Source of the DNA: an uncultured Thermoanaerobaculia bacterium
Lineage (GTDB): Bacteria; Acidobacteriota; Thermoanaerobaculia; Multivoradales; Multivoraceae
Reading direction: 5' to 3'
DNA: 64,000 bases
Assembly: GCA_951812325.1 (NCBI GenBank)
Contig: OX638294.1
Span: 3,198,859-3,262,858 of the forward strand
Within the stretch, counting starts at the first letter, position 1, and every line of letters starts with the position of its first letter. Made by a program: the position numbers and the translations under genes. Under the pieces are notes generated by a model. That model did not search any database. It saw only the letters and a list, made by a program, of their open reading frames with translations, and was not told where the DNA came from. Of the stretch, positions 4,009 to 17,836 are shown one piece after another.

Positions 4009-4174
4009 ACACCGGGTTGCACGGGCGTTCCGGAAGCCCGCCCGGCGGCAGCGCCGCGAAGCCGCGCAGATGCCGGGTTTCCTGAGCGACTCCGCGGCGA
4101 CACCGCGGTGAGGTGGGCGCTCCGGGCCAGACACCCCGTCCTGAAACGAGGCTGGAGCGGCGGGCCTGGCGGTG

Positions 4175-5101
4175 TCAGGTGGCCCGTGGGTGATGGCGGT
4201 CGTACAGCGTGCGGAGCCGGTGCTCGTGGATATGGGTGTAGATCTGCGTGGTCGTGATGTTCGCGTGGCCGAGCATCACCTGCACGGCGCGCAGGTCGGC
4301 GCCGTGCTCGAGCAGGTGGGTGGCGAAGCTGTGGCGCAGCACGTGGGGCGACAGGTCGGGGATGCCGGCGCCCCGCCCGTAGTTCCTGAGCAGCTTCCAG
4401 AGTCCCTGCCGGGTCAGTCCGCCGCCGCGATAGCTGACGAAGACAACGTCGTGGCGGCCCTTCGCCATCACCGGCCGCACGTCCCTCAGGTAGCGGTTGA
4501 GCCAGGTCTCGGCCGACTCGCCCACCGGCACGACCCGTTCCTTGGCCCCCTTGCCGAACGCAATGAGGAAGCCCGCGTCGAGCTGGAGCTGGCTCCGTTC
4601 GAGGCCGACCATCTCGCTGACCCGCAGGCCTGTGGCGTAGAGCAACTCGATCATCGCCCGATCCCTCACTCCCGGAGGCCGGCTGGTGTCGGGGGCGCGG
4701 AGCAGAGCCCCGACCTGCTCTTCGCGGAGCACCCTGGGCAACCGACGGGGCAGCCGCGGCGGGTAGAGGTTGACTGCCGGGTTGTCGTCACGGTCGCCCT
4801 CGTGGACGAGGAAGGCGTAGAACCGGCGCATCGAGACCAGGGCGCGACTGATCGAGCGCGGCGACAGCCCCTCAAGGCGCAGTCGCCGCAGGTGACGCGC
4901 GAGCTGCTCCACGGTGGCAGCCAGCAGGTCGCCGCCGTCATCCTCCAGGTTGCTCCTCAGCCGAAGCAGGTCGCGCCGGTAGGCGTCCACCGTATGCCGG
5001 GAGAGGCCCCGCTCGACCAGCAGACCGTCGAGATAGCGGTCCAGTGTCCGCTCACTCCCGGACACCGCGGACGGCCGGCTCGAGGTCTTTGTCGCGGGCA
5101 T
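4175..5101 (-). CDS. xerD: Tyrosine site-specific recombinase XerD
   Basis: Internal ATG of the 870-aa ORF (MPATKTS...). Phage-integrase catalytic region LRHSFATHLLEHGADLRAVQVMLGHANITTTQIYTHI with the XerD-typical C-terminus ...HHPRAT. The upstream part of the long ORF is Arg/Ala-rich and rejected. Confidence 0.85.
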   Translation of the reverse strand: MPATKTSSRPSAVSGSERTLDRYLDGLLVERGLSRHTVDAYRRDLLRLRSNLEDDGGDLLAATVEQLARHLRRLRLEGLSPRSISRALVSMRRFYAFLVHEGDRDDNPAVNLYPPRLPRRLPRVLREEQVGALLRAPDTSRPPGVRDRAMIELLYATGLRVSEMVGLERSQLQLDAGFLIAFGKGAKERVVPVGESAETWLNRYLRDVRPVMAKGRHDVVFVSYRGGGLTRQGLWKLLRNYGRGAGIPDLSPHVLRHSFATHLLEHGADLRAVQVMLGHANITTTQIYTHIHEHRLRTLYDRHHPRAT

Positions 5102-5314
5102 GGGTCGTATGGCCAACAATCTATCAGTCGTGCTGGATACTCGATCATGCCGCTCTGGCCGGCGGCGCCGTTGGTCGGTTGCAGTAGAGATCACCGCTGG
5201 CCCGGCGCCGGTTCTCTGGGTGCGCGGTCCGTTGCGCGCGCCTTTGGCCCCCGATCCGAGCGCAGCGGCGAAGCGGCGAGCGCGAGTCGCGTTGCCCCGC
5301 GCTACGATTCCCCA

Positions 5315-6964
5315 ATGATCAAACGAGCTCTCGCCCTCGCGTTTCCTCTTCTCGCGTTTCTCCTCGGCGCCTGCAGCACACCCGCTCCGCCGCCCGATAC
5401 CGCAACCCAACTCGACACCTGGATCGCCGACCTGGCCGACGACGCGATGGAAGGCCGCGGCCCCGGCACGGCCGGCGACGTGATGGCGCGCCAGTACATC
5501 GCCGACGTGATGGCCGGCATGGGCCTCGAACCCGCGGCCGCCGACGGTAGCTGGGAGCAGCCCTTCGACATCGTCGGCATCGACGCGGCGGTGCCCGAGA
5601 CCTGGACGTTCCACTCCAGCGCCGGCGACAGCGTGGAGTTTGCGTTTTGGGACGAGTTCATCGCGCACAGCGGCGTCCAGTCGGAGCAGGCCGCGATCGA
5701 GAACGCCGAACTCGTGTTCGTCGGCTACGGCATCCAGGCGCCCGAGTACGGCTGGGACGACTACGGCGACGCGGACCTCGCCGGCAAGGTGCTCGTCATG
5801 CTGAACAACGATCCGGACTGGGATCCGGACCTGTTCGAGGGCGACCGCCGCCTCTACTACGGCCGCTGGACGTACAAGTACGAGAGCGCCGCGGCTCAGG
5901 GCGCCGTCGGTGCGATCATCATCCACACGACCCCTTCGGCGGGCTACCCGTTCCAGGTCGTACAGACCTCCTGGACCGGCCCGCAGTTCGAGCTTCCCGC
6001 GGAAGGCGAGGCCCGCACCCGGATCAACGCCTGGCTGACGGAGGAGGCCTCCCGACGGCTCTTCGCGCTGGCCGGCGTCGACTACGACGCGACCCTGGAA
6101 TCGGCCCGGAGCGCCGACTTCGTGCCGGTGCCGCTCGGCCTGTCGACCAGCCTTTCGCTGACGAACACGGTAACCAGCGAGCAGACCGCCAACGTGCTCG
6201 GCGCCCTGCCCGGCAGCGACCCGGAACTGGCCGACGAGTGGGTCGTCTTCACCGCCCACCACGACCACATGGGCATCTCGCCGGACGAGAGCCTGGAGGA
6301 CCGGATCTACAACGGCGCCCTGGACAACGCGGCCGGCGTTGCCCAGGTGCTCGCGGTCGCCGGCGAGCTGGCCGCGCAAGAGCCCGGTCCGAGCAGGTCC
6401 ATCCTGTTCGCCTTCGTCGGCGCCGAGGAGCAGGGACTGCTCGGCTCCGAGTACTACGCCGCTCATCCCACCGTGCCGCCCGGCAAGATGGCCGCGAACA
6501 TCAACTACGACGGCGGCAACCAGTGGGGCCGCACCCGCGACGTGACCTACATCGGCTACGGCAAATCGAGCCTCGACGGTGTCGTCGAAGCGGCCGCGGC
6601 CGAACAGGGCCGCACCGTGCTGCCCGACCAGTTCCCGGCCAACGGCTACTTCTACCGCTCGGACCAGTTGAACTTCGCCCGCATCGGCGTGCCGGCGATT
6701 TACCTGGACAACGGCACCGACTTCATCGACCGCCCCGAAGGCTGGGGCCACGAGCAGCTCAAGGCCTGGACCGAGAACATCTACCACCAGGTCTCCGACG
6801 AGTACGGCGAGGACTGGAACCTCGAAGGCATGGTCGACGACGTCGAACTCGGCCTCGCCTGCGCCCGCGCCATTTCCGAGAACCCCGAACTCCCGTCCTG
6901 GAACCCCGGCGACGAGTTCGAGGCGGCACGGTTGGCGGCGCTGGCCGCCGTGTCGGGCGAGTAG
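5315..6964 (+). CDS. M28-family zinc aminopeptidase lipoprotein with PA domain
   Basis: Starts at internal MIKRALALAFPLLAFLLGACS (lipobox). Has HHDHMG, NGALDNAAGVAQVL and FVGAEEQGLLGSEYY metal-ligand motifs. The 5' part of the track ORF is antisense to xerD and rejected. Confidence 0.8.
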   Translation: MIKRALALAFPLLAFLLGACSTPAPPPDTATQLDTWIADLADDAMEGRGPGTAGDVMARQYIADVMAGMGLEPAAADGSWEQPFDIVGIDAAVPETWTFHSSAGDSVEFAFWDEFIAHSGVQSEQAAIENAELVFVGYGIQAPEYGWDDYGDADLAGKVLVMLNNDPDWDPDLFEGDRRLYYGRWTYKYESAAAQGAVGAIIIHTTPSAGYPFQVVQTSWTGPQFELPAEGEARTRINAWLTEEASRRLFALAGVDYDATLESARSADFVPVPLGLSTSLSLTNTVTSEQTANVLGALPGSDPELADEWVVFTAHHDHMGISPDESLEDRIYNGALDNAAGVAQVLAVAGELAAQEPGPSRSILFAFVGAEEQGLLGSEYYAAHPTVPPGKMAANINYDGGNQWGRTRDVTYIGYGKSSLDGVVEAAAAEQGRTVLPDQFPANGYFYRSDQLNFARIGVPAIYLDNGTDFIDRPEGWGHEQLKAWTENIYHQVSDEYGEDWNLEGMVDDVELGLACARAISENPELPSWNPGDEFEAARLAALAAVSGE

Positions 6965-7034: not shown

Positions 7035-7051
7035 GTCCCATGAGTGAAGCC
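7035..7051. repeat. Left arm of a 17-bp perfect inverted repeat (gtcccatgagtgaagcc) covering the CDGSH start codon
   Basis: Exact reverse complement of 7635-7651, read directly from the sequence. Confidence 0.8.
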
Positions 7052-7279
7052 CGTATAGCTGAGCGTGTTCCGGCCAAGATCGAACTCGAAGCCGGCGCCT
7101 ACTGGTGGTGCCGGTGCGGCGAGTCGAAGAACCAACCGTTCTGCGATGGATCCCATCGCGGTACGGACTTTGAGCCGATGCGGCTGACGTTGGAGGAGGA
7201 CCGCCGGGTCGCGCTCTGCCAGTGCAAGCGGAGCGACAAGATGCCGCACTGCGACGGCAGCCACAGGTTCCTGGACTGA
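7040..7279 (+). CDS. CDGSH iron-sulfur domain protein (two CDGSH motifs)
   Basis: 79 aa with WWCRCGESKNQPFCDGSH and CQCKRSDKMPHCDGSH. The start codon is embedded in the left arm of a 17-bp inverted repeat. Confidence 0.75.
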   Translation: MSEARIAERVPAKIELEAGAYWWCRCGESKNQPFCDGSHRGTDFEPMRLTLEEDRRVALCQCKRSDKMPHCDGSHRFLD

Positions 7280-7309: not shown

Positions 7310-7630
7310 ATGCCAGACTGTCTCTCTCATGCGATACGGAAGGCTCGAATGACGACGGAGAGTTCGATGTTGCACGTCCGGATGGACGCCGAGATGAAGC
7401 GGAAGGCGACGGCAGCGCTCGCAGCGATGGGACTGACGGCTTCGGAGGCCGTGCGGCTGTTGTTTCACCGCATCGCCGTCGATCAGGCCTTCCCGCTCGA
7501 GCTCAAGGTGCCGAACGCGCGGACCCGCCACGCCATGGCCGAGGTGGACGAGATGGTGGAGAAGCGCAGCGCGCGGTTCGCCAGCGCGGACGAGGTGTCT
7601 GCGGAGCTTGAAAAAGCCAGCGTCCGCTAG
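7310..7630 (+). CDS. RelB/DinJ-family type II antitoxin (orphan)
   Basis: MKRKATAALAAMGLTASEAVRLLFHRIAVDQAFPLELKVPNARTRHAM resembles DinJ. The true start is probably Met14 (about 7349). No RelE/YafQ-like toxin ORF follows. Confidence 0.65.
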   Translation: MPDCLSHAIRKARMTTESSMLHVRMDAEMKRKATAALAAMGLTASEAVRLLFHRIAVDQAFPLELKVPNARTRHAMAEVDEMVEKRSARFASADEVSAELEKASVR

Positions 7631-7651: not shown

Positions 7652-7721
7652 CAGCTCCTCTGTCTATTCGAACAGTTCCGCGTGCGTGCCTGCACGCGCC
7701 AAGTAGATGGACCAGTGCCGC

Positions 7722-7868
7722 ATGAGCGACCCTAACTGGAAGAACCGCACTCTCCGGACGGGGCGCGACAATCTTGAAGTCATGCGTGGCCTGAACTCCG
7801 AGTCGGTGGACCTCATCTACCTTGACCGGGGACTAAGTCTCAGGCGCAATTCCTGCGCGAACGCATGA
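7722..7868 (+). pseudogene. 5' fragment of a beta-class N6/N4 DNA methyltransferase (about 33 conserved N-terminal residues, no DPPY motif)
   Basis: My translation MSDPNWKNRTLRTGRDNLEVMRGLNSESVDLIYLD matches the N-termini of CcrM-like N6_N4 MTases (xxGDCLExMxxLPxxSVDLIFADPPY). The ORF then degenerates (RGLSLRRNSCANA*) and stops after 48 codons. Confidence 0.55.
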
Positions 7869-7977: not shown

Positions 7978-8403
7978 ATGGCGAGAGTCCGGAACCGGAA
8001 CACTGGGCCGGAGTTGATCCTGCGCCGGGCGCTCCACGCCCGCGGGCTGCGGTACAAGCTACACGATTCCGCGCTTCCCGGTCGGCCGGATCTCGTCTTT
8101 CCTCGTTTCGGAGCGGTTTGCTTCATGCACGGCTGTTTCTGGCATCGCCACGAAGGCTGTCGCCGCGCGACGACACCGGCGACCAACAGGAGTTCTTGGG
8201 AGCGGAAGTTCGCGGCAAATGTTCGGCGTGACCGGAAGAACCGGATGGCACTGCTTGAGGCCGGCTGGCGTGTCGGGGTGGTCTGGGAGTGCGCTCTACG
8301 CCCCAAGGAGCGCTTGGAGGCGGTGGCAGCGAGTGTTGAGGGATGGCTGAAGGGACAGCGCAAGGAGTTCACAGCCGGTCGCCGGCAGGCTGGCGGGTCA
8401 TAG
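7978..8403 (+). CDS. vsr: Very-short-patch repair endonuclease Vsr
   Basis: 141 aa. LPGRPDLVF...CFMHGCFWHRHEGC...WERKFAANVRRDRKNRMALLEAGWRVGVVWECAL aligns with E. coli Vsr. The D51, H64, H69 and E25 equivalents are present. Confidence 0.85.
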   Translation: MARVRNRNTGPELILRRALHARGLRYKLHDSALPGRPDLVFPRFGAVCFMHGCFWHRHEGCRRATTPATNRSSWERKFAANVRRDRKNRMALLEAGWRVGVVWECALRPKERLEAVAASVEGWLKGQRKEFTAGRRQAGGS

Positions 8404-9576
8404 CCATGCTGGAAGTGCGAGCGGAAGGGCTGAAGACGCGATAGGTAGTGCGGGTAGGCCGTTCCTGGCTCGGGATGGTACGAGGTCGTCGGCGCTGCTT
8501 CTGGCGAGTCCATGCGAGATAAGGTTCCACTTCTTCTTCCCGAGGCATGCCGGCGGTTTCTTCTCAAGTCCCTCAGTCAGCATGTTCAGGACCTCAGGTA
8601 CCTTGGCTTTACGGTCTTCAAAGAACTCCACATGATCGTCTGCGAAGCGGTCGCTCAACCAATGCTTGATTGCGTCGATTCCTGCGGGACACGTTTTGTC
8701 GACTGCGTCGTCCATGATACCGCGAAGTTCGCTGGCGATCTGCCCCACCATGTGCTGTTCTGAATCCGAAGGCTGCGGAAGACATGCGCGGTGCGCAAGA
8801 AAGGCTGGATCAAGGTCCGGTCCGAAGTGTTCCAGTACCCGGTATACGTTCTCCCGGACGGCGGCGAGAGCAGTGAGAACGAGGCTGGGCAGGAGTCCCT
8901 GGGCCATTTCGGCGACGTCGGCGATGAGCCGCTCGGCCAACTCTTCTTCGTTCACAACCGTGTTCAGGGCGTCGGCGCCGGAGCCGGGCTTCCCGTAGAC
9001 GACGATCCGGCACGCTCCGAAGTCGATGCGACCATGGTCGTCTGTCGTCCGAGTCGTTCCATGGGGTGCGTCCAGGTCGTTAAGGCGTTCGGAAATTCGT
9101 CTGCGAATGTCCTGGCGGTCGGGCTCGCCGGTGTAGAACGCGATCAAGCGAAGCCGAGCGGGCTGATCTGCCCGCAGGATACGCTTTAGCAGTGGCAATG
9201 CGGTCGCGCCGCTGGTTCGGCTCAGCCGCCAGTCCAAAATGACGATGTCCGCACGAGCGATGGCTTTGACGAGAGCCTCAAGGTCGTCTTGGTCTCGCGG
9301 GGGCAGTACTACGCCGCAGACCATCCCCTGGCGGGCAAACGACAAGGTGATGGGGTCAACCTTCAGGGGCCGGGACGGACCATGTTGCGGGGCGGCTTGG
9401 GCCGGTGCTTGGCTCGAGGCGCGCTGGTCGGGTGGGGTCAGCCCGCCGTGGACCGGCGTCTCTGCCGGGGCGGAGAGCTCGTCGTCAACGACCACCGCTG
9501 TCAGCAGGAAGCGCCGGACGATCTCTTCACAGTGCTCGCCAAGCGCGTTCGCTTCCGGGGAGCTAGGGTTGGTCAT
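8398..9576 (-). CDS. Receiver (REC) domain protein with about 260-aa C-terminal domain of unknown function
   Basis: Start moved to internal ATG (MTNPSS...), which has an AAGGG ribosome-binding site (RBS) 8 nt upstream and overlaps the last 4 codons of the upstream kinase gene. REC-like motifs: AVVVDDE, ADIVILDWRL (phospho-acceptor Asp), LIAFYTGEP, VVYGKPG. The 3' end overlaps vsr tail-to-tail by 6 nt. Confidence 0.7.
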   Translation of the reverse strand: MTNPSSPEANALGEHCEEIVRRFLLTAVVVDDELSAPAETPVHGGLTPPDQRASSQAPAQAAPQHGPSRPLKVDPITLSFARQGMVCGVVLPPRDQDDLEALVKAIARADIVILDWRLSRTSGATALPLLKRILRADQPARLRLIAFYTGEPDRQDIRRRISERLNDLDAPHGTTRTTDDHGRIDFGACRIVVYGKPGSGADALNTVVNEEELAERLIADVAEMAQGLLPSLVLTALAAVRENVYRVLEHFGPDLDPAFLAHRACLPQPSDSEQHMVGQIASELRGIMDDAVDKTCPAGIDAIKHWLSDRFADDHVEFFEDRKAKVPEVLNMLTEGLEKKPPACLGKKKWNLISHGLARSSADDLVPSRARNGLPALPIASSALPLALPAWL

Positions 9577-12544
9577 CGGTGTCGCCCTTCCGGTCCTTGA
9601 TCGGCGCGATAGCGAACGTCGTGCTCCACTTCGATCCGCGCTCCTCGAGCGCCAGGCCGTAACCAATCTCACGCAGCGTCGCGCGTGCGATGTGCAGCCC
9701 CATGCCGCGGCCCTCCGGCTTTCTGGTGAACCCGATATCGAAGACTTCGTCCCGGTCCCGGGCGTGAATGCCGGGTCCCGTGTCCGAGACGCGGAACGTC
9801 TTCCCGGACCTGTCGAGCTGGATTCGGCGCTCAAGCCGCTCGTTCAAACCCGAGAGCCAGTAGATCGCGTTGTCCACGAGATTGATGAACACAGGATAGA
9901 AGGAAGACGGATAGCCGCGCACGGCCGCGCTGGCGAAGGCGTCGGTCCGGGTCAACTCAACGTGGTGTCTGGCCAGTCGCTGGCCAAAGAGGTTGATCAG
10001 AAAATCGTGAATCTCCCACCCGCGAATGTCCACGGCTTTGCGGTAAAGTCTTCTTTGGAGCGGCGTAAATAGTGTCAGGTACGCGTCGAGATGATCGAAG
10101 CTGCCGCGAATCCCCTGATACAGCGACTTCAGTTCGCGATTCGCATCGGCCCAGGCCTTGAGGCCGCGCAGTCCCGATCGGACCGAACGGATGGCGGCGC
10201 CGAACTCGTGGCTGATGATCTCGATCGCCATGCCTAGCTGAGCGAGCTGAAGGTCGGCGGCAGCCTGTTCCTGGAGTGTGACGTTGCTCTGTTCCACGGC
10301 CTCAAGTTGATCGAGAAGCCAGGAGTCGGCCGTCAAATCGACGGCTTCCAGCTGCGAGCGAACGGCGTCGAGAGTTTTCTTTTCGGTCTCGAGCGCCTCG
10401 CGGATCGGAACTTCCAGATCGGAACGTACGGAAATCAGCTGCTGGTCGTCCAAGTCTGCAAGGTCGCGCCGGTCGAAATCGGCCATTCCGGCGCGAATGG
10501 CATCCTCGACATTCTGCACGCACCGCAGGGCCAGGCTGCGCACATCCTCCGAGATACTCTTCGCTCTCGCGTCTACTTCGCAACGACCCGCCTCCGTTTC
10601 TCTCCTGGCCGATTGACCCAGTTGGTTGAGAGCCGAGTCGATGCGTTCTCGGGCACTAACGTCGACGCCCGCCTTGGTCACTTCCTGCGTGACGACACTC
10701 TCAATGGACGTCCGGAGGTCTCGTATGCCGTCGGCAAGGTTCTGAAACGCTTCCCGGTAGTCGCCCCATTCCCGTTGCAAGGCGCGGCTCAAGCCGATAC
10801 GCGGCTTGGAAACCCGGTAACAGGTCTCCAGCTTCTCGAGATCTCTGCGGGCATTCCGTTCGATCTCTATGATTCGTCTGGCTGCTCGCCCGCGGTCCGT
10901 ATCGAGACTCGCCTCTTTCACTCGTTCCTCGGCCCCCAAGCCCAGTTCCATGGCGCTGTCAAGCGGCTTACTCGTCTCCATTCGCTGGAAGAAGGCCGCA
11001 AGGTCCTTCCTGAACTGGTCGCGCTTGGCGGTGACGGTTCTGGCGCGGGCACGCCTATGGCGCTCGATCTCGTCCAACTCGCGCTTGCGGCTCTTGAACC
11101 GTTCGCCGTACGCTCCCTCCTCCCGGAAGAAGTCGGCGGCCACCTGAACGAGGAAGCTCTTCAGAATGCTCCGCAGTTCACGGTAGGCCTTGTTCTGGCG
11201 GAAGCCCTCTCGCCCCGCCTTCTCGCGAAGACGTGAGTTGTTAACGGAGTCGACTTCAACCACGCCGAACATCTGTCGGTATGAGAAGTAGTAGTAGGAG
11301 GCGCTCTTGGTCCGCCGGAATTCGATTTTCAGCCAGTCGTAGTCGGTGGTCCCGTACGGTTGAATGCGCACGCCGTCCCGATAGATGTAGAGGCCCCCGA
11401 TGCGTCTCGTCTTCTCGAGCATTCGAGCATGCTCCGCCGGAGGAAGAGTGGAATGCCTGGATGCGCCCTCGATTGCGGCGAACCTGATATGGAACGGACC
11501 GCAGGCCGTGGGACGCCCTCTTCCGTCGCGCCAATTGATGACGTGGTCGCTCCTGGTCTCGCCGTAGATGGACACGCTGCCCTTGAACTGGCCATAAGCG
11601 TCGAATCTACCTGAGATCTGATGATCCGCGTTCTCGTAGTCGGAGCGAGTGAAGAACTCGTGCTCGCCGATGAGGTCCTCGCAGGCGCCATCCAGTCTGT
11701 GGTCGCGGAAAGCGGTGCGGATGATGGGCTCCGTGCCAGTCGCGAACGACGGAATGGTAAACCCCAGCAGTGCTTTCTGTAGCGGCGCCGCCGAACGGGA
11801 GGTCGCCTCCCCCGCCATGTCGTGGTCCAGGTCGGCCGATGCTGGCAGAAGGTAGAAGTGCGTACCGTGACCGCCGTCGAGGAGCGACGGCTGGCCCAGG
11901 TGTGCGGCGGTCGCCCGAGGATCAACGGCAAACGCTCCAAGGTCGCCCTTGATCCGGGCCCACTCCTCTTCGTCCATGCGTTTCTGAAGGCCTGCGTTCC
12001 TGTCGAGGAATGACTCCACCATCTCGGCTACGTCCTCGGCGTCGGGCAGGCTGCCTCCGGGAAGAGTGCGTAGCGGAATCCGGATGTCCTGGAGATTCAG
12101 TTCGGGACATTCGAAGACCCGCCAGTTGAGAAAGGCAGCCGTCAGGTCGGACAAGCCGTCGTCGCGAAGGGCGCGTGTGAGCACCAGGACTTGAGGAGCG
12201 ATCGTGGCGATGGCCAGGCGACCGATTCCCTTCTCCCCCAGAATGGGCCTTGCGCCTTGCAGCGGCTGGCGGCGTTGCCGCTCCGTGCGTTTCCGCCGAA
12301 TGCTGGTCTCCGTCGCGATGGTGAGCCATCGGTCGATGAACTCGTCGGTCTGCATGCCGAAGCCGTCGTCGCGCATCACGAACAGCCTGTCGCGGCGGTA
12401 GTAGTCAACTTCCACATGCCTGGCGTCCGCGTCGTGAGCGTTCTTGAACAGTTCGCTAATCGCGGTTGGGATGCCGGCGATCTGCTGTCTCCCCAGCATG
12501 TCCAGCGTTCTCGCCCGGGCCTTGAAGCTAACCTCCGTCGACAT
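9563..12544 (-). CDS. Dual GHKL protein: N-terminal MORC/Hsp90-like ATPase, long coiled-coil middle, C-terminal histidine kinase (HisKA H-box + HATPase_c)
   Basis: Start moved to Met50 (MSTEV...), whose ATG shares one nt with the MTase stop (TGATG). N-terminal ISELFKNAHDADA, RDDGFGM, GEKGIGRLA resemble HATPase_c_3. C-terminal H-box IEIISHEFGAAIRS, N-box FINLVDNAIYW, G1 RVSDTGPGI, G2 GRGMGLHIA. Confidence 0.75.
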   Translation of the reverse strand: MSTEVSFKARARTLDMLGRQQIAGIPTAISELFKNAHDADARHVEVDYYRRDRLFVMRDDGFGMQTDEFIDRWLTIATETSIRRKRTERQRRQPLQGARPILGEKGIGRLAIATIAPQVLVLTRALRDDGLSDLTAAFLNWRVFECPELNLQDIRIPLRTLPGGSLPDAEDVAEMVESFLDRNAGLQKRMDEEEWARIKGDLGAFAVDPRATAAHLGQPSLLDGGHGTHFYLLPASADLDHDMAGEATSRSAAPLQKALLGFTIPSFATGTEPIIRTAFRDHRLDGACEDLIGEHEFFTRSDYENADHQISGRFDAYGQFKGSVSIYGETRSDHVINWRDGRGRPTACGPFHIRFAAIEGASRHSTLPPAEHARMLEKTRRIGGLYIYRDGVRIQPYGTTDYDWLKIEFRRTKSASYYYFSYRQMFGVVEVDSVNNSRLREKAGREGFRQNKAYRELRSILKSFLVQVAADFFREEGAYGERFKSRKRELDEIERHRRARARTVTAKRDQFRKDLAAFFQRMETSKPLDSAMELGLGAEERVKEASLDTDRGRAARRIIEIERNARRDLEKLETCYRVSKPRIGLSRALQREWGDYREAFQNLADGIRDLRTSIESVVTQEVTKAGVDVSARERIDSALNQLGQSARRETEAGRCEVDARAKSISEDVRSLALRCVQNVEDAIRAGMADFDRRDLADLDDQQLISVRSDLEVPIREALETEKKTLDAVRSQLEAVDLTADSWLLDQLEAVEQSNVTLQEQAAADLQLAQLGMAIEIISHEFGAAIRSVRSGLRGLKAWADANRELKSLYQGIRGSFDHLDAYLTLFTPLQRRLYRKAVDIRGWEIHDFLINLFGQRLARHHVELTRTDAFASAAVRGYPSSFYPVFINLVDNAIYWLSGLNERLERRIQLDRSGKTFRVSDTGPGIHARDRDEVFDIGFTRKPEGRGMGLHIARATLREIGYGLALEERGSKWSTTFAIAPIKDRKGDTDDQP

Positions 12545-13647
12545 CAGCTCAAGCGTGCCTCGGCGAGGTGTCTGATGACGTGCTGTCCCACCAGGTTCGT
12601 CAACAGAGAAGGTACGGCGTTCCCAATCTGCCGGGCCATCGAGTTCAGATTGCCGCAGAGGTGAAAATCCATCGGAAATGTCTGAAGACACGCGGCTTCC
12701 CTGACGCTGATCGCACGATCCTGCTCAGGGTGCCCGAAGCGGCCGTTGGAATAGCTGATGCAACGCGTCGTGAGCCCGGAAGCCGGCCGGTCCCAAGACA
12801 TGCGACCGTAGACGTCGGTGTAGCCGGCAGTCTGCTTGTGGCATTCAAGACGAAGGGCCTCCGGCCAATCCCGGTGCCCGCCGCCCTCGGGGGTTGCCCG
12901 GATGCGCTCCAGATTGAGCTCGGACAGTCGAGCGGCGCGGTGGTCGCGGATTGCCGGGTGGGTCTCACCGGCGTCAATCCCCGGCAGGTCGCCTATCCAG
13001 TCGCGCACGGTGGAGAACTCGGGGTTGGCCGCGCCCGGCCCGTGGGTTTTGGGAGGGAGACCCACGGGTCCGTGGCGACTGGCGAGGAGCAGGAATCGGC
13101 GGCGACCCTGCGGCACTCCGTAGTGCTTCAAGGGCACTGAAGTGCAGGTCGGCTTGGGATAGCCCGCCTCCTCCAATCCCTGAAGGAAGTCGCTCAGCGG
13201 TTCAGATTCGGGGCACACATTCTGAATCCCCGGGACATTCTCCACGAAGACGACGTCCGGCTTGCATCTGCGGATGAAGCGCAGGAGCTCAAGAAGCAAG
13301 GGCACCCGTTCGTCTTCTGTGGGCTTGGGACGGCTGGTATTCTGCTTGGTGAAAGGCTGGCAGGGTGCGCATCCGCAGAACAGAATGGGGCGCGGTCGGT
13401 GTTCAACCACCAGCTCGTGGACGGAGCCTTCATCCACATCCCGAATGTCGCTGCGTTCGAAGACGGCCGCTGGGAAGTTGCGCCGGTAGGTTCGCTCGGC
13501 GTCGGCGTCACAATCGAGTCCGAACACGATCTCCATTCCGGCGTCTTGAAAACCGCGGCTGGCCCCGCCGCAACCGGAGAAGAAATCGAAGACCACCGCT
13601 CGCCGCCAAGCCGCGCCGTTCGTGTTGGGATCGTCGAGGGAATTCAT
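12544..13647 (-). CDS. DNA (cytosine-5)-methyltransferase (Dcm-like)
   Basis: 367 aa. Motif I VVFDFFSGCGGASRGF, motif IV GCAPCQPFT, motif VI VFVENVPG, motif VIII QGRRRFLL, motif X NAVPSLLTNLV. Confidence 0.9.
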   Translation of the reverse strand: MNSLDDPNTNGAAWRRAVVFDFFSGCGGASRGFQDAGMEIVFGLDCDADAERTYRRNFPAAVFERSDIRDVDEGSVHELVVEHRPRPILFCGCAPCQPFTKQNTSRPKPTEDERVPLLLELLRFIRRCKPDVVFVENVPGIQNVCPESEPLSDFLQGLEEAGYPKPTCTSVPLKHYGVPQGRRRFLLLASRHGPVGLPPKTHGPGAANPEFSTVRDWIGDLPGIDAGETHPAIRDHRAARLSELNLERIRATPEGGGHRDWPEALRLECHKQTAGYTDVYGRMSWDRPASGLTTRCISYSNGRFGHPEQDRAISVREAACLQTFPMDFHLCGNLNSMARQIGNAVPSLLTNLVGQHVIRHLAEARLS

Positions 13648-13764: not shown

Positions 13765-15021
13765 TTAACCTTCAACGATCTCCGCGTCATGCCCGCACCA
13801 CACGAGGCCTGACACGAGCTTCGGCAGGAAGCGGGTCGACTTGGGCGGCAGCAGGTCGCCGTCTTCGGTCGCGAGGGCGAACTGCTTCGGGGTCATCGGC
13901 GGCAGGAAGACGCCGGTGGTGACGGCGCCGCTTTGCAGCAGTTCGATGATGTCTTCCGGGTCGGCTTCGTAGGCGATGCTGCCGTCGGTGGCGGATTCGA
14001 TTGGGACGCCGGCGGTCGTCAGCAGGTGATGGTGGAGCAGGGAGGCCGGCAGGTCGGCCTTGCGTCCGGGCATGTCGGCGGGCGCGGCCGCGGCGTCGAG
14101 GGTCCACAGTTCGGGTGACGGGTCGCCCTGGAACCAGACGGCGAGGGCGGGCTGCGGCGCGGCCGCGACGCGGGCGGCGATGTCCTTGCCGGCGGTCGCT
14201 TCCAGGGTCTCGCGGCGCGCCGGCAGCGCGGACATCGCCTCGCGGTCGACCGGGACGCGGATGCCGCGGTGGACCGGGTCGATCCGGAGGTTCGCGGAGG
14301 CCAGGCTGGTGAGGACGACCATCTTGCACGCCGCGGCGGCGCCGCCCTTTGCCCCCTCCTCGGCGGCGTAGGTCTGGGCGACCTGGGTGCGATGATGGCC
14401 GTCGGCGATCGCGGCGCGGGCGCCCTTGAGCGCCGCGGCGTAGGCGCCGATCCGCTCGGGGTCGGTGATCCGGAAAAGGCTGTGGACGTCGCCGGTCCAC
14501 GGGTCGGTGTGACGGACCAGGGCGTCGCCCGCGGCGCCGCTTGAGTCTTCGCTCAGCAGGCGTTCCAGGACGCCGTCGTCCTCGGCGAGGTAGAACACGG
14601 GCTCGATGTCGATTTGCGTGAGCCGGAGCAGGGCCAGGCGCTCGGCGATCGACTTGGCGACCGTCTGTTCGTGGGGCCGGAGGTCCCCCTCGCGTCCCGG
14701 CTCGACGCCGACCAGGGCGCACAGGCCGAGGCGGCTCGAGCCGTCGGGCCGGGCGATCGCGTACGGGTAAAGCGAGGGAGTCTCGTCGCGCTCGACGACT
14801 CCGTTCTCCAGCCACTCCCGGTGGAGCGCGGCCGCGTGCTCGTGCGGCGTCTCGCCGTCACGCGCCACGGGCTTCGTCACCCGGGAGAACTGGTGCGGCG
14901 ACTGCGCGTGCAGGCGGTCGCGCAGGGTCTCGTCGATCTGGTCGAAGGGCGGCGCCGCCTGAGCTGCGGCATCGAGCCTGGCGGAGTTGTAGCGGTAGCC
15001 CTGGAAGGCGTAGAGCTTCAT
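13765..15021 (-). CDS. DUF1015 family protein
   Basis: 418 aa. N-terminus MKLYAFQGYRYN and conserved IADGHHR, typical of DUF1015. Confidence 0.7.
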   Translation of the reverse strand: MKLYAFQGYRYNSARLDAAAQAAPPFDQIDETLRDRLHAQSPHQFSRVTKPVARDGETPHEHAAALHREWLENGVVERDETPSLYPYAIARPDGSSRLGLCALVGVEPGREGDLRPHEQTVAKSIAERLALLRLTQIDIEPVFYLAEDDGVLERLLSEDSSGAAGDALVRHTDPWTGDVHSLFRITDPERIGAYAAALKGARAAIADGHHRTQVAQTYAAEEGAKGGAAAACKMVVLTSLASANLRIDPVHRGIRVPVDREAMSALPARRETLEATAGKDIAARVAAAPQPALAVWFQGDPSPELWTLDAAAAPADMPGRKADLPASLLHHHLLTTAGVPIESATDGSIAYEADPEDIIELLQSGAVTTGVFLPPMTPKQFALATEDGDLLPPKSTRFLPKLVSGLVWCGHDAEIVEG

Positions 15022-15187: not shown

Positions 15188-17836
15188 TCAGGCGGCGCGA
15201 CTGTCGTCGCTTCCGGCTTCGTTTGAACCGGTCGTCGGTCCGGTTCGGATCGAGAGGCTACCGCCTTCCACGTCGATCACAATCCGATCTCCCGCGCCGA
15301 GATCGCCGCCGACCAGGGCGCGTCCCAGGCGGGTCTCGACCTCGCGCTGAAGGTAGCGCTTGAGCGGCCGGGCGCCGTAGACGGGGTCGTATCCGGCGCG
15401 GGCCGTGAACTCGCGCGCCGCCGGGGTCAGTTCGAGCCCGATCCCCTGGTCGCCGAGGCGCTGCTCGAGGTCGGCCGTCAGCAGGCCGACGATCTGCTCG
15501 ATCTCCGACACGGTGAGCGGCGAGAACAGGACGACCTCGTCGATCCGGTTGAGGAACTCGGGCCGGAAGCTGCGGCGCAGCTCGGCCATCACGGCGTCCC
15601 GGGCCGCGTCCGTGATCTCGCCCGCCGGCGTGACGCCTTCCAGCAGGCGGGGAGAACCCAGGTTGGAGGTCATGATGACGACCGTGTTCTTGAAGTTGAC
15701 GGTGCGTCCCTGGGAGTCGGTGATCCGACCGTCGTCCAGAATCTGCAGGAGCACGTTGAACACGTCGCGGTGCGCCTTCTCGATCTCGTCGAACAGGACG
15801 ACCGCGTACGGCTTGCGCCTTACCGCCTCGGTCAGCTGCCCTCCGTCCTCGTGGCCGACGTAGCCGGGCGGCGCCCCGACCAGGCGCGAGACGGTGTGCC
15901 GCTCCATGTACTCGCTCATGTCGAGGCGGACCATGTTGTCCTCGGTGTCGAAGAGCGCCTCCGCCAGCGTCTTGGCGAGTTCCGTCTTGCCGACGCCGGT
16001 GGGGCCGAGGAAGAGGAAGGAGCCGATCGGGCGCCGCGGATCCTTGATTCCCGACCGGGCGCGGATCACCGCGTCGGCCACCAGGCCTACTGCTTCGTTT
16101 TGGCCGATCACCCGGCGGTGCAGGATCTCGTCGAGACGCAGCAGCTTCTCGCGCTCGCCCTCGACCAGGCGGGTGACCGGGACGCCGGTCCACCTGGACA
16201 CGATCTCCGCGATCTCGTGGTCGGTCACCTCTTCCCGCAGCAGGCGGCCCGAGGCGTCGGCCGCGCCTTCCGCCTGCTCCTGGCTCTCGAGCTTCGCGCT
16301 CAACTCCGGGAGCACGCCGTGCCGCAGCTCGGCGGCCCGGTTCAGGTCGTAGTGGCGTTCGGCGACCTCGATCTCGCGCCGCACCTGTTCGATCTGCTCG
16401 CGCACCTTCCGCTCGTCGTCGATTGCCGCCTTCTCGCTCTCCCACTGGCTGCGCATCGCCGCGTCGCGGGTCCGCAGGTCGGCGAGTTCACGTCTGAGCG
16501 TCTGCAGGCGCGCCTGGCTCGACTTGTCGGTTTCCTTGGTCAGCGCCGCCTCCTCGATCTCGAGCCGCATGACGCGGCGGGTCACTTCGTCGAGTTCGGC
16601 CGGCAGGGAGTCGATCTCCGTGCGGATCAGGGCGCCCGCTTCGTCGACCAGGTCGAGCGCCTTGTCGGGCAGGAACCGGTCCGAGACGTAGCGGTCCGAG
16701 AGGGTGGCTGCGGCGACCAGCGCGTTGTCCTGGATCCGTACGCCGTGGTGGACCTCGAAGCGTTCGCGCAGGCCGCGCAGGATGGACACCGTGTCCTCCA
16801 CCGACGGCGCATCGACCAGAATCGGCTGGAACCGCCGCTCGAGGGCAGCGTCCTTCTCGATGTACCTGCGGTACTCGTCCAGGGTGGTGGCGCCGATGCA
16901 ATGGAGTTCGCCGCGCGCGAGCATCGGCTTGAGCAGATTGCCGGCGTCGGTGGAGCCTTCGGTGCGGCCGGCGCCGACGATGTTGTGAACCTCGTCGATG
17001 AACAGCAGGATGCGTCCCTCGCTTTGGGCGATCTCGGTCAGCACGGCCTTCAACCGCTCCTCGAACTCGCCGCGGTACTTGGCGCCGGCAAGCAGCGCCC
17101 CGAGGTCGAGCGAGAAGACGCTGCGGTCCTTGAGCCATTCGGGCACGTCGCCGCGGACGATGCGCCCTGCCAGTCCCTCGACGATGGCCGTCTTGCCGAC
17201 GCCCGGTTCGCCGATCAGCACCGGGTTGTTCTTGCGTCTGCGGGAGAGGATGCGGATCGCTCGGCGGATCTCCGAATCGCGCCCGATGACCGGGTCCATC
17301 TTGCCGGCCCGCGCCTGAGCGACCAGGTCGACACCGTACTTCTCGAGGGCCTCGTACGAGGCTTCCGGATTGTTGCTGGTCACACGCTGGGCGCCGCGCA
17401 GGGTCTTGAGCGTTTCCAGGAGCTGCGGCCGAGAGAGGCCGGCGTCGGCCAGGGCCCTGGCGGCGCCGTCCCTGCCTTCGGCTGCCGCGAGCAGCAGATG
17501 CTCGACCGACACGTAGTCGTCGCCGAGCGCCCCGGCCTCGTCTTCTGCCCGGATCAGGAGCTGCTGCAGGTCGGTCGTGACGTAGAGCTTGCCGAGTTCG
17601 TCCGCGCCGCCGGTGACCTTCGGCTTGCGCTCGAGGTCGGCCCGGAGTCTTGCGCCGAGTGTGGCCGCGTTGATGTCGAGGCGCTGGAGCAGCCGGGGCG
17701 TCAGACCGTCGTGCTGGTCGAGCAGAGCGAGCAGCAGATGCTCGCTGTCAACCTGTTGGTGGCCGAGACGCCGCGCCCGGTCCTGGGCGCCGGTCAGAGC
17801 TTCCTGGGACTTGATCGTCAGCTTGTTCGGGTCCAT
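15188..17836 (-). CDS. clpB: Chaperone ClpB (AAA+ disaggregase)
   Basis: 882 aa. Two AAA modules ([15 protein letters not shown]; [16 protein letters not shown]), middle coiled-coil, Clp N-domain. Confidence 0.95.

Follow-up and report, generated by a model that had tools for sequence, protein, structure and literature searches.

In the 64,000-nucleotide stretch of DNA analyzed here (the window), a gene encoding a protein with two GHKL ATPase modules was found between those of a DNA methylase and a receiver-like protein, all three on the minus strand. The first gene (12544..13647) encodes a C5 cytosine DNA methyltransferase of 367 amino acids, which was recognized by Pfam (DNA_methylase, E = 4.8e-45), NCBIfam (dcm, 120.9 bits; cut-off, 100.65) and PADLOC (MTase_II, E = 2.9e-82). 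Its stop codon overlaps by 1 nt (TGATG) the start codon of the second gene (9563..12544; ATG at 12544, stop codon at 9563-9565), which encodes the double-GHKL protein of 993 amino acids, hereafter the kinase. The first-pass annotation had given the same coordinates for this gene, to which the minus-strand orientation is added here. The third gene (8398..9576), which from its ATG shares 14 nt with the end of the kinase gene, encodes a receiver-like Response_reg_2 protein of 392 amino acids; this downstream operon partner, which is truncated here, had escaped the first-pass annotation. A gene for the very-short-patch-repair endonuclease Vsr (141 amino acids; 7978..8403, plus strand) is convergent with the operon and was identified by NCBIfam (vsr, 116.9 bits; cut-off, 97.85) and Pfam (Vsr, E = 1.1e-22). 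Vsr is a repair enzyme, and it was the only nuclease found in the module. No third receiver gene was found in the operon. The GC content of the island was 0.627, as compared with 0.696 elsewhere.

The domain order of the kinase was determined as HATPase_c_3, a probable transducer-like region, a helical linker, the HEF_HK dimerization/phospho-acceptor (DHp) domain and HATPase_c. The N-terminal GHKL ATPase of the MutL/Hsp90/MORC type (residues 27-126; 12167..12466, minus strand) was matched by HATPase_c_3 (E = 4e-15, 56.5 bits against a Pfam cut-off of 25), placing a GHKL fold within the first ~150 residues, and its motifs I-III are intact, with ELFKNAHD at residue 31, DDGFGM at 59 and GEKGIG at 103 of the translation. 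The HEF_HK domain (PF19191; residues 769-835; 10040..10240, minus strand) scored 96.4 bits against a Pfam cut-off of 24.1 (E = 1.4e-27) and contains the predicted phospho-acceptor His779 in the ISHEF motif. The C-terminal histidine-kinase catalytic ATP-binding domain (residues 880-970; 9635..9907, minus strand) was matched by HATPase_c (E = 1.6e-14, 54.7 bits against a Pfam cut-off of 26.4). All canonical boxes of a sensor histidine kinase are present in the C-terminal part, namely the H box with the phospho-acceptor His (SHEF at 778) and the N (DNAIYW at 891), G1 (DTGPG at 921) and G2 (GRGMGL at 945) boxes, and a PDB profile search matched the kinase C-terminus to the DHp-plus-catalytic structures of ThkA, ZraS and HK853. 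The motif residues were invariant in 15 homologues with identity down to 27%, and E775, H779, E780, N888 and N892 were invariant among the compared homologues. Three Pfam domains above cut-off, together with all of the named motifs, bear out the earlier claim of two distinct GHKL modules in a single polypeptide; no further domain was detected in the kinase by Pfam.

By a simple hydropathy test alone, no transmembrane segment was predicted in the kinase (maximum Kyte-Doolittle 19-residue mean, 1.29; none reached the threshold of 1.6). The absence of both a transmembrane segment and a further Pfam domain fits intracellular sensing of something other than a small molecule, and the kinase head may sense DNA or protein in an ATP-dependent manner. 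A model of the N-terminal 520 residues lay nearest in structure to SMCHD1, Hsp90, MutL and MORC rather than to the catalytic domains of histidine kinases, in agreement with the MORC-like N-terminus assigned at first pass; the two structural models were of moderate confidence (mean pLDDT, 61.5 and 65.4).

The region between the two ATPase modules, previously described as about 500 coiled-coil residues, was divided into two parts, and the helical, heptad-rich character held for residues ~450-770 but not for ~130-450. The first part (residues about 130-450; 11195..12157, minus strand) is a globular alpha/beta region, rich in Pro and Gly and with highly conserved motifs, including the conserved block GGLYIYRDGVRIQPYG...EKAGREGF, which probably belongs to an S5/transducer-like domain. 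Residues 380-450 are extremely conserved, and the invariant K442 and R445 are candidates for the ATP gamma-phosphate sensor. The second part (residues about 451-768; 10241..11194, minus strand) is a Pro/Gly-poor linker, as judged by its composition, its heptad contrast (0.40 versus 0.28 ± 0.03 in shuffles) and the modelled helices at residues 452-473 and 480-519. The linker is poorly conserved in sequence, yet the length of the whole protein was 979-994 amino acids in all compared homologues but one.

The receiver-like protein was assigned to Response_reg_2 (PF19192, 121.7 bits; cut-off, 27) and has a receiver fold in which the acidic pair D31/D32, D115, T149 and K196 are conserved. The protein is C-terminally truncated here, beyond residue ~365, with 392 amino acids as compared with about 534 in homologues. 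DNA alignment showed that ~587 bp of the receiver-like gene of the nearest relatives is absent here as a clean deletion (alignment A2, columns 390-976), with the junction in 8470..8490 (no strand assigned), at about 8480/8481 (receiver-like codon 366). The deletion takes out a conserved, family-specific C-terminal domain, and past the junction the frame reads on into sequence that is unrelated and lies antisense to the vsr 3' end. Both the methylase and the kinase are intact in the window. Among related loci with a disrupted gene, the receiver-like gene was affected in six, the methylase in one and the kinase in one, in a census of metagenome-assembled genomes in which counts are small and frameshifts may be assembly errors. 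This pattern of loss is suggestive of a costly or toxic component accompanied by a protective methylase. Searches of the receiver-like protein and the kinase found neither a nuclease nor another known effector fold, and a DNA-binding or other regulatory output domain was not detectable in the receiver-like protein.

The arrangement was compared across 80 loci from 80 genomes of many phyla. In 79 of them the methylase immediately precedes the kinase, so that the co-occurrence of the fusion with methyltransferase genes, raised in the first-pass annotation, was observed, and the receiver-like gene is directly downstream in 78. Flanking genes vary while the triad stays. The Vsr gene adjoins the triad in 47 loci and is absent in the other 33, and its position and orientation differ between clades; the 80 loci have no conserved gene for a separate restriction nuclease, and Vsr alone recurs. 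Replicons of Pantoea and Pseudoalteromonas carry the same triad at 27% identity. Over 4,000 homologues were retrieved, and a search by just two peptide patterns detected the module in 351 of 185,579 species representatives.

Proteins of this kind form 'group 1' of the HEF_HK family (HATPase_c_3, HEF_HK and HATPase_c), the majority form with 174 of 222 sequences (Bellieny-Rabelo, Pretorius and Moleleki 2021, Genome Biol Evol, PMC8011034). That study already described HEF_HK genes as linked to Response_reg_2, to a C5 methylase lying upstream and to Vsr or R-M, and its authors suggested a signaling cascade controlling R-M systems; neither truncated partners nor experiments were reported. PF19191, both HATPase domains, an adjacent PF19192 protein, the C5 methylase upstream and Vsr close by were all found here, and the protein is likewise predicted to be soluble, with no transmembrane segment. 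The difference from the group is none in kind, except that the partner here is without its C-terminal domain. The architecture was first regarded as unusual, but it predominates in a Pfam family already described in print (PMC8011034), and Orlowski and Bujnicki (2008, PMC2441816) had noted it in R.EcoUTORF4938P, a putative REase with a MutL-type GHKL head and a C-terminal histidine-kinase-type GHKL domain carrying the motifs N, D, F and G. The architecture and the methylase linkage are thus known from the literature (2008 and 2021), and HEF_HK, like Response_reg_2, is a Pfam family; additional to the literature are the receiver-like deletion here and the receiver-like gene being the component most often disrupted in relatives. 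A literature search found no experimental work on any HEF_HK family member.

Putative and confirmed GHKL-headed Type II REases, R.HgiDII and BbrUII among them, resemble the kinase in that a methylase-linked gene encodes a MutL-type GHKL domain at the N-terminus, whereas the BbrUII/HgiDII family carries another C-terminal domain, of unassigned fold (R.HgiDII, PMC2441816), and no kinase module. The BbrUII/HgiDII model (NF050001) scored 78 bits against a cut-off of 550 and matched profile positions 8-115 of 659 only, so the similarity is limited to the first ~115 residues and does not amount to full-length membership. Still, the N-terminal ATPase resembles that of this family most, and since NCBIfam designates its members as restriction enzymes, the likeness is suggestive of an R-M-like role. 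PADLOC models matched only the N-terminal ATPase (REase_II) and the methylase, and no nuclease family, as would define a classical Type II R-M system, matched the kinase or the receiver-like protein. ParaMORCs occur in R-M systems, and none of paraMORC1-5 has been described with a C-terminal histidine kinase (Iyer, Abhiman and Aravind 2008, PMC2292703). The likeness to MORC/paraMORC proteins lies in the intact GHKL ATP motifs followed by a probable transducer-like region, the cytosine methylase and Vsr, and the sporadic, laterally transferred distribution; in contrast, no linked SFII helicase or recognized nuclease was found here and the C-terminus is a histidine kinase. Motifs I-III are invariant, as in a MORC in the strict sense, but the MORC-specific S5 motif GhXhhpXXRhl was not found; the nearest sequence, GLYIYRDGVRI (G384 to R393-I), has one extra residue, with three residues between the polar position and Arg instead of two. 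With GHKL and transducer-like regions, no MORC motif, a methylase/Vsr/R-M context and sporadic occurrence, the protein was placed in the paraMORC radiation, at the level of the radiation.

It has been demonstrated experimentally with Detocs (DtcA/DtcB/DtcC) that a His-Asp phosphorelay can be a bona fide phage defense (bioRxiv 10.1101/2023.01.24.525353). The module here is similar to Detocs in its cytoplasmic kinase with a non-canonical sensor and in the proposed joining of a receiver to a non-transcriptional effector as an immune module, a logic for which Detocs is the experimental precedent. Detocs comprises a TPR sensor, the buffer receiver DtcB and the receiver-PNP ATP-nucleosidase effector DtcC, with no methylase, whereas the module here has a GHKL ATPase sensor, no buffer gene, an effector without a recognized fold and an obligatory methylase. 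No TPR or PNP domain was found in the operon proteins by Pfam, and PADLOC, whose release may not include the Detocs models, gave no match to them.

The 'group 1' kinase gene thus sits in the middle of a methylase/kinase/receiver module, laterally mobile and with or without Vsr. On balance, we lean toward the view that this module acts as an R-M-like defensive phosphorelay and has decayed here. The methylase would mark the host's own DNA. The soluble, MutL/MORC-like GHKL-plus-transducer head would dimerize upon ATP binding and serve to clamp or sense some state of DNA or nucleoprotein, such as incoming DNA that is unmodified. By way of the helical linker (~320 residues), the change in the head would reach the DHp and catalytic domains, with autophosphorylation of His779, and the phosphoryl group would be transferred from His779 to D115 of the dedicated Response_reg_2 protein. 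Phosphorylation would turn on the family-specific helical and C-terminal beta-rich output domains of the latter, the putative output being a restriction activity or a toxic one, while Vsr would mend T:G mismatches resulting from 5-methylcytosine deamination. Because the ~587-bp deletion removed the receiver-like output domain, this copy of the module has most likely decayed to a non-restricting remnant. It is a credible, though tentative, proposal that the triad is a restriction/abortive-infection system gated by the His-Asp phosphorelay, in which a MutL/MORC-type ATP-driven clamp senses non-self DNA and the receiver C-terminal domain is an effector whose fold has so far been assigned to no nuclease or toxin family. 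If this domain is indeed a toxic effector, its clean loss here and the preferential disruption of its gene in relatives would be a footprint of toxicity.

Other explanations were weighed against the defensive phosphorelay. The double-GHKL protein could itself be a restriction endonuclease subunit, with a new-fold nuclease in residues ~130-480 and the kinase and receiver parts only tuning it. We regard this as unlikely, although the N-terminus is best matched by GHKL-headed Type II REases (BbrUII/HgiDII in NCBIfam and REase_II in PADLOC), residues 380-450 are extremely conserved, the C-terminal fold of R.HgiDII is unassigned, and R.EcoUTORF4938P, of the same architecture, was classed as a putative REase on the basis of REBASE (PMC2441816). 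It is likewise improbable that the kinase/receiver pair is a regulatory two-component system for the methylase, that is, an epigenetic switch or C-protein-like timing of R-M with no effector of its own. The tight operon with the methylase, the lack of a detected effector fold and the signaling cascade over R-M systems proposed in PMC8011034 are consistent with such a role, but the receiver-like protein has no detectable regulatory output domain, a conserved separate restriction nuclease to be controlled was not found (Vsr alone recurs, in 47 of 80 loci), and a costly effector accounts better than a regulator for losses that fall preferentially on the receiver-like gene and spare the methylase.

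In E. coli, MutL stimulates or recruits Vsr, and the module might similarly be a MutL-like accessory of very-short-patch repair, with the GHKL head acting on Vsr at T:G mismatches made through the methylase. We consider this quite improbable, since Vsr is missing from 33 of 80 loci whereas the receiver-like gene is rarely lacking, a repair accessory has no obvious need of a His-Asp phosphorelay, and the shifts of Vsr position and orientation between clades suggest a looser coupling. Both ATPase domains belong to the GHKL superfamily, so an ordinary hybrid kinase with a degenerate N-terminal duplicate of its ATP-binding domain was also considered; this has hardly any chance of being correct, being contradicted by the Pfam HATPase_c_3 match, the invariant motifs and the MutL/MORC-like structural model, whose neighbors (SMCHD1, Hsp90, MutL and MORC) are not kinase domains.

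What remains of value is the functional problem posed by a very widespread, laterally mobile triad in which a MutL/MORC-like ATPase is coupled to a phosphorelay beside a methylase. Should the triad prove defensive, it would follow Detocs as the second kind of two-component system with such a role, and it would provide a bacterial model for MORC-type ATPases that read DNA or epigenetic state.

The kinase gene, 9563-12544 on the minus strand (ATG at 12544, stop codon at 9563-9565), encodes a protein of 993 aa. Pfam analysis recovered HATPase_c_3 (residues 27-126, E = 4e-15), HEF_HK (residues 769-835, E = 1.4e-27) and HATPase_c (residues 880-970, E = 1.6e-14), all well over the gathering score, confirming the two GHKL modules in one polypeptide that the first-pass annotation had read from the translation. 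All the motifs quoted there were found, with ELFKNAHD, DDGFGM and GEKGIG at positions 31, 59 and 103 of the N-terminal module, and ISHEF with His779, NLVDNAIYW, DTGPG (921) and GRGMGL (945) in the C-terminal module. In an alignment of 15 kinase homologues with identity as low as 27%, the catalytic residues of both the N-terminal module (E31, N35, D38, D59, G61, G63, G103, K105, G106 and G108) and the C-terminal module (H779, E780, N888 and N892) were invariant. From these domains, motifs and invariant residues, the double-GHKL observation is therefore real and far above chance. The analysis shows a soluble protein with two catalytically competent-looking ATP sites and a DHp histidine. The spacer, previously described as about 500 residues rich in coiled-coil-like heptads, is not coiled coil over that length: residues ~450-770 alone are helical, with few Pro/Gly and a heptad contrast of 0.40 versus 0.28 ± 0.03 in shuffles, whereas residues ~130-450 are globular alpha/beta. 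Kinase residues 386-968 also strongly match PHROGs family phrog_8137, which carries a function-less annotation (E = 1.2e-108); this sequence match shows that phages or prophages have relatives of the kinase part.

The N-terminal module is MutL/MORC-like, a likeness under which TRAP1 was also listed, and the alternative that this ATPase is a degenerate duplicate HATPase_c of an ordinary hybrid kinase is excluded. The block GGLYIYRDGVRIQPYG...EKAGREGF (residues 383-448), which includes the invariant K442 and R445, is very strongly conserved and resembles the S5/transducer signature of MORCs. The head, comprising the N-terminal ATPase and this transducer-like region, is named MutL/MORC-like (paraMORC-type) and no MORC proper, because the match to the MORC-specific motif GhXhhpXXRhl needs one additional residue and the structural model is unreliable over residues 359-428. 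By sequence, the head comes nearest, among named relatives, to the ATPase heads found in BbrUII/HgiDII family members, restriction enzymes by NCBIfam naming; the family profile scored 78 bits against a cut-off of 550, with only profile positions 8-115 aligned. PADLOC recognised nothing in the module except the methylase and the ATPase head.

The kinase gene is the middle member of a tight operon. The TGA of the upstream C5 cytosine methylase gene (12544-13647) overlaps the kinase ATG, and the ATG of the downstream Response_reg_2 receiver-like gene (8398-9576, minus strand) lies 14 nt within the kinase gene; beyond it, vsr (7978-8403) is convergent with the operon. The GC content of the block from methylase to vsr (7978-13647) is 0.627 versus 0.696 in the remaining window, with 0.719 in the neighbouring DUF1015 gene and 0.688 in clpB, which fits a laterally acquired island. 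Three Candidatus Multivorans genomes have the island in one and the same place, from DUF1015 to CDGSH. The neighbours, namely an M28 peptidase (4172-6964, plus strand; the listed ORF is 930 aa and its true start probably lies well downstream of 4172), a CDGSH iron-sulfur protein (7040-7279, plus strand), the DUF1015 protein (13765-15021, minus strand) and ClpB (15188-17836, minus strand), look like ordinary housekeeping genes and are conserved beside the module solely in the closest relatives. Between the CDGSH gene and vsr, a RelB/DinJ-family antitoxin gene (7310-7630, plus strand; TIGR02384, 62.6 bits) is followed by no toxin-sized ORF on the same strand and is missing at the equivalent position in two of the related loci (L001 and L002). 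Possible readings are an orphan antitoxin and a toxin-antitoxin remnant in a decaying island. A 53-aa ORF (7707-7868, plus strand) contains '...DNLEVMRGLNSESVDLIYLD...', which may resemble a motif at the N-terminus of N6/N4 DNA methylases; this resemblance was unsupported by Pfam and by tblastn against the loci and against plasmids. The promoter and terminator scan gave nothing over shuffle expectation.

A scan for two conserved peptides, covering a single genome for each species, found 351 relatives, the best 80 of which were examined as loci L001-L080. The co-occurrence of the same fusion with methyltransferase genes, proposed as a check in the first-pass annotation, was observed in these best 80, with a methylase immediately upstream of the kinase in 79/80 loci; the receiver-like gene is immediately downstream in 78, and Vsr is encoded in 47, same-stranded where it lies upstream and convergent where it lies downstream. 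Outer flanks are common only to the window and its three nearest relatives. The closest genomes to the window belong to Candidatus Multivorans (Acidobacteriota). The hosts include Acidobacteriota, Gemmatimonadota, Verrucomicrobiota, Rhodothermales, Gammaproteobacteria, Alphaproteobacteria, Spirochaetia, Nitrospira, a Synechococcus, Bacteroidota and Chlorobia, and the identity of 45-85% across this range of phyla indicates that the module is laterally mobile. Large replicons of Pantoea and Pseudoalteromonas carry the same triad of methylase, kinase and receiver-like protein at 27% identity, with the annotations 'ATP-binding protein' and 'response regulator receiver domain'. Among the 80 loci, kinase identity reaches 70-75% between phyla (Acidobacteriota, Verrucomicrobiota Opitutales, Gemmatimonadota Longimicrobiales and Rhodothermales), and methylase identity broadly follows it. 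Several genome names are presumably those of marine-sponge metagenome bins, which, if so, suggests recent exchange of the module inside a shared habitat.

The receiver-like protein is truncated in the window, with 392 aa compared with 530-550 aa in homologues (median 534 aa, 78 loci). When aligned at the DNA level with its two nearest relatives, the gene shows a clean gap of ~587 bp with its junction at ~8480/8481, corresponding to codon 366, beyond which the frame continues in unrelated sequence, antisense of the vsr 3' end. The part lost is a conserved C-terminal domain of ~170 aa, predicted in a model of a full-length homologue to be beta-rich, then helical (pLDDT 80-90), with an invariant C-x4-C-D motif and a tail of (G/A)ELK...SR(V/I)GL...EW.RR. 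An exhaustive profile search found 1,363 cluster representatives with this domain, which among the best 150 matches is C-terminal, in proteins mostly 500-600 aa long. The domain is family-specific and, being almost solely in proteins of the same architecture, its domain partners are uninformative. No known fold was matched by Pfam, PDB profiles or Foldseek against viral structures: Pfam on a full-length homologue, 40 family members and 10 isolated C-terminal domains gave sub-threshold matches only (iHD-CE, SsgA and DUF6593; best E-values 0.0015-0.065), the PDB profile search gave nothing under E = 0.9, and Foldseek gave no match at E <= 0.001. A PD-(D/E)xK reading of the conserved CD...ELK residues was rejected, with a spacing of ~88 residues and a Glu that is unconserved in distant members.

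Of the 80 loci, six have a receiver-like gene that is split, truncated or missing, one has a disrupted methylase and one a disrupted kinase. Insertions of ~2 kb split the receiver-like gene in L019 and L070, and L018, L039, L049 and L050 have truncated or fragmented copies of it. In L052, the main match covers only kinase residues 418-993, ~2.8 kb downstream of the methylase, and the N-terminal part is therefore displaced or lost; in L020, the methylase match was continuous over the C-terminal third only. That the receiver-like gene is the part decaying most often is suggestive, because the census was mostly on metagenome-assembled genomes.

The double-GHKL architecture and its receiver, methylase and Vsr context are already published. 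Bellieny-Rabelo et al. (PMC8011034) reported 91.6% linkage of HEF_HK with Response_reg_2 genes and HATPase_c_3 + HEF_HK + HATPase_c as the dominant architecture (174/222), noted the C5 methylase upstream and Vsr downstream, and proposed descent from paraMORCs. A general association of MORC/paraMORC with restriction-modification systems was described by Iyer et al. 2008 (PMC2292703). Literature searches found no experimental work on the HEF_HK kinase family. The defensive two-component system Detocs (bioRxiv 10.1101/2023.01.24.525353) is an experimentally shown case of a His-Asp relay driving an immune effector; it has no sensor or effector in common with the module in the window.

The first-pass interpretation is, as a whole, partly supported, and within it ATP-dependent sensing of DNA or protein by the kinase is a proposal. 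The analysis shows a cognate receiver, an obligatory methylase and lateral mobility. In the proposed mechanism, the MutL/MORC-type head would dimerise upon ATP binding and read the state of DNA or of a nucleoprotein, the linker helices would couple this to autophosphorylation of His779, and the phosphoryl group would then activate the unassigned output domains of the receiver-like protein. The methylase would shield the host's own DNA and Vsr would limit 5-methylcytosine mutagenesis. The decay pattern, in which the output is lost and the methylase kept, fits a costly or toxic receiver output. The kinase protein itself could instead be an endonuclease, as implied by the REBASE-based listing; in R.EcoUTORF4938P, which REBASE gives as a putative restriction enzyme, Orlowski and Bujnicki (2008; PMC2441816) had already noted GHKL domains at both termini, the C-terminal one of histidine-kinase type. 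The kinase-receiver pair could also be a regulator of the methylase, or the head a MutL-like helper of Vsr, but each of these three readings accounts for less of the conserved triad than does sensing and phosphorelay to the receiver-like protein.

The module in the window is most likely an inactive remnant, and it may still methylate DNA and signal to its headless receiver. Beyond the published work, the analysis adds the truncation of the receiver-like partner in the window and, suggestively, the more frequent decay of this gene. The function of the HEF_HK kinase family is a genuine testable question, and the truncated partner hints where the effector lies in the module.
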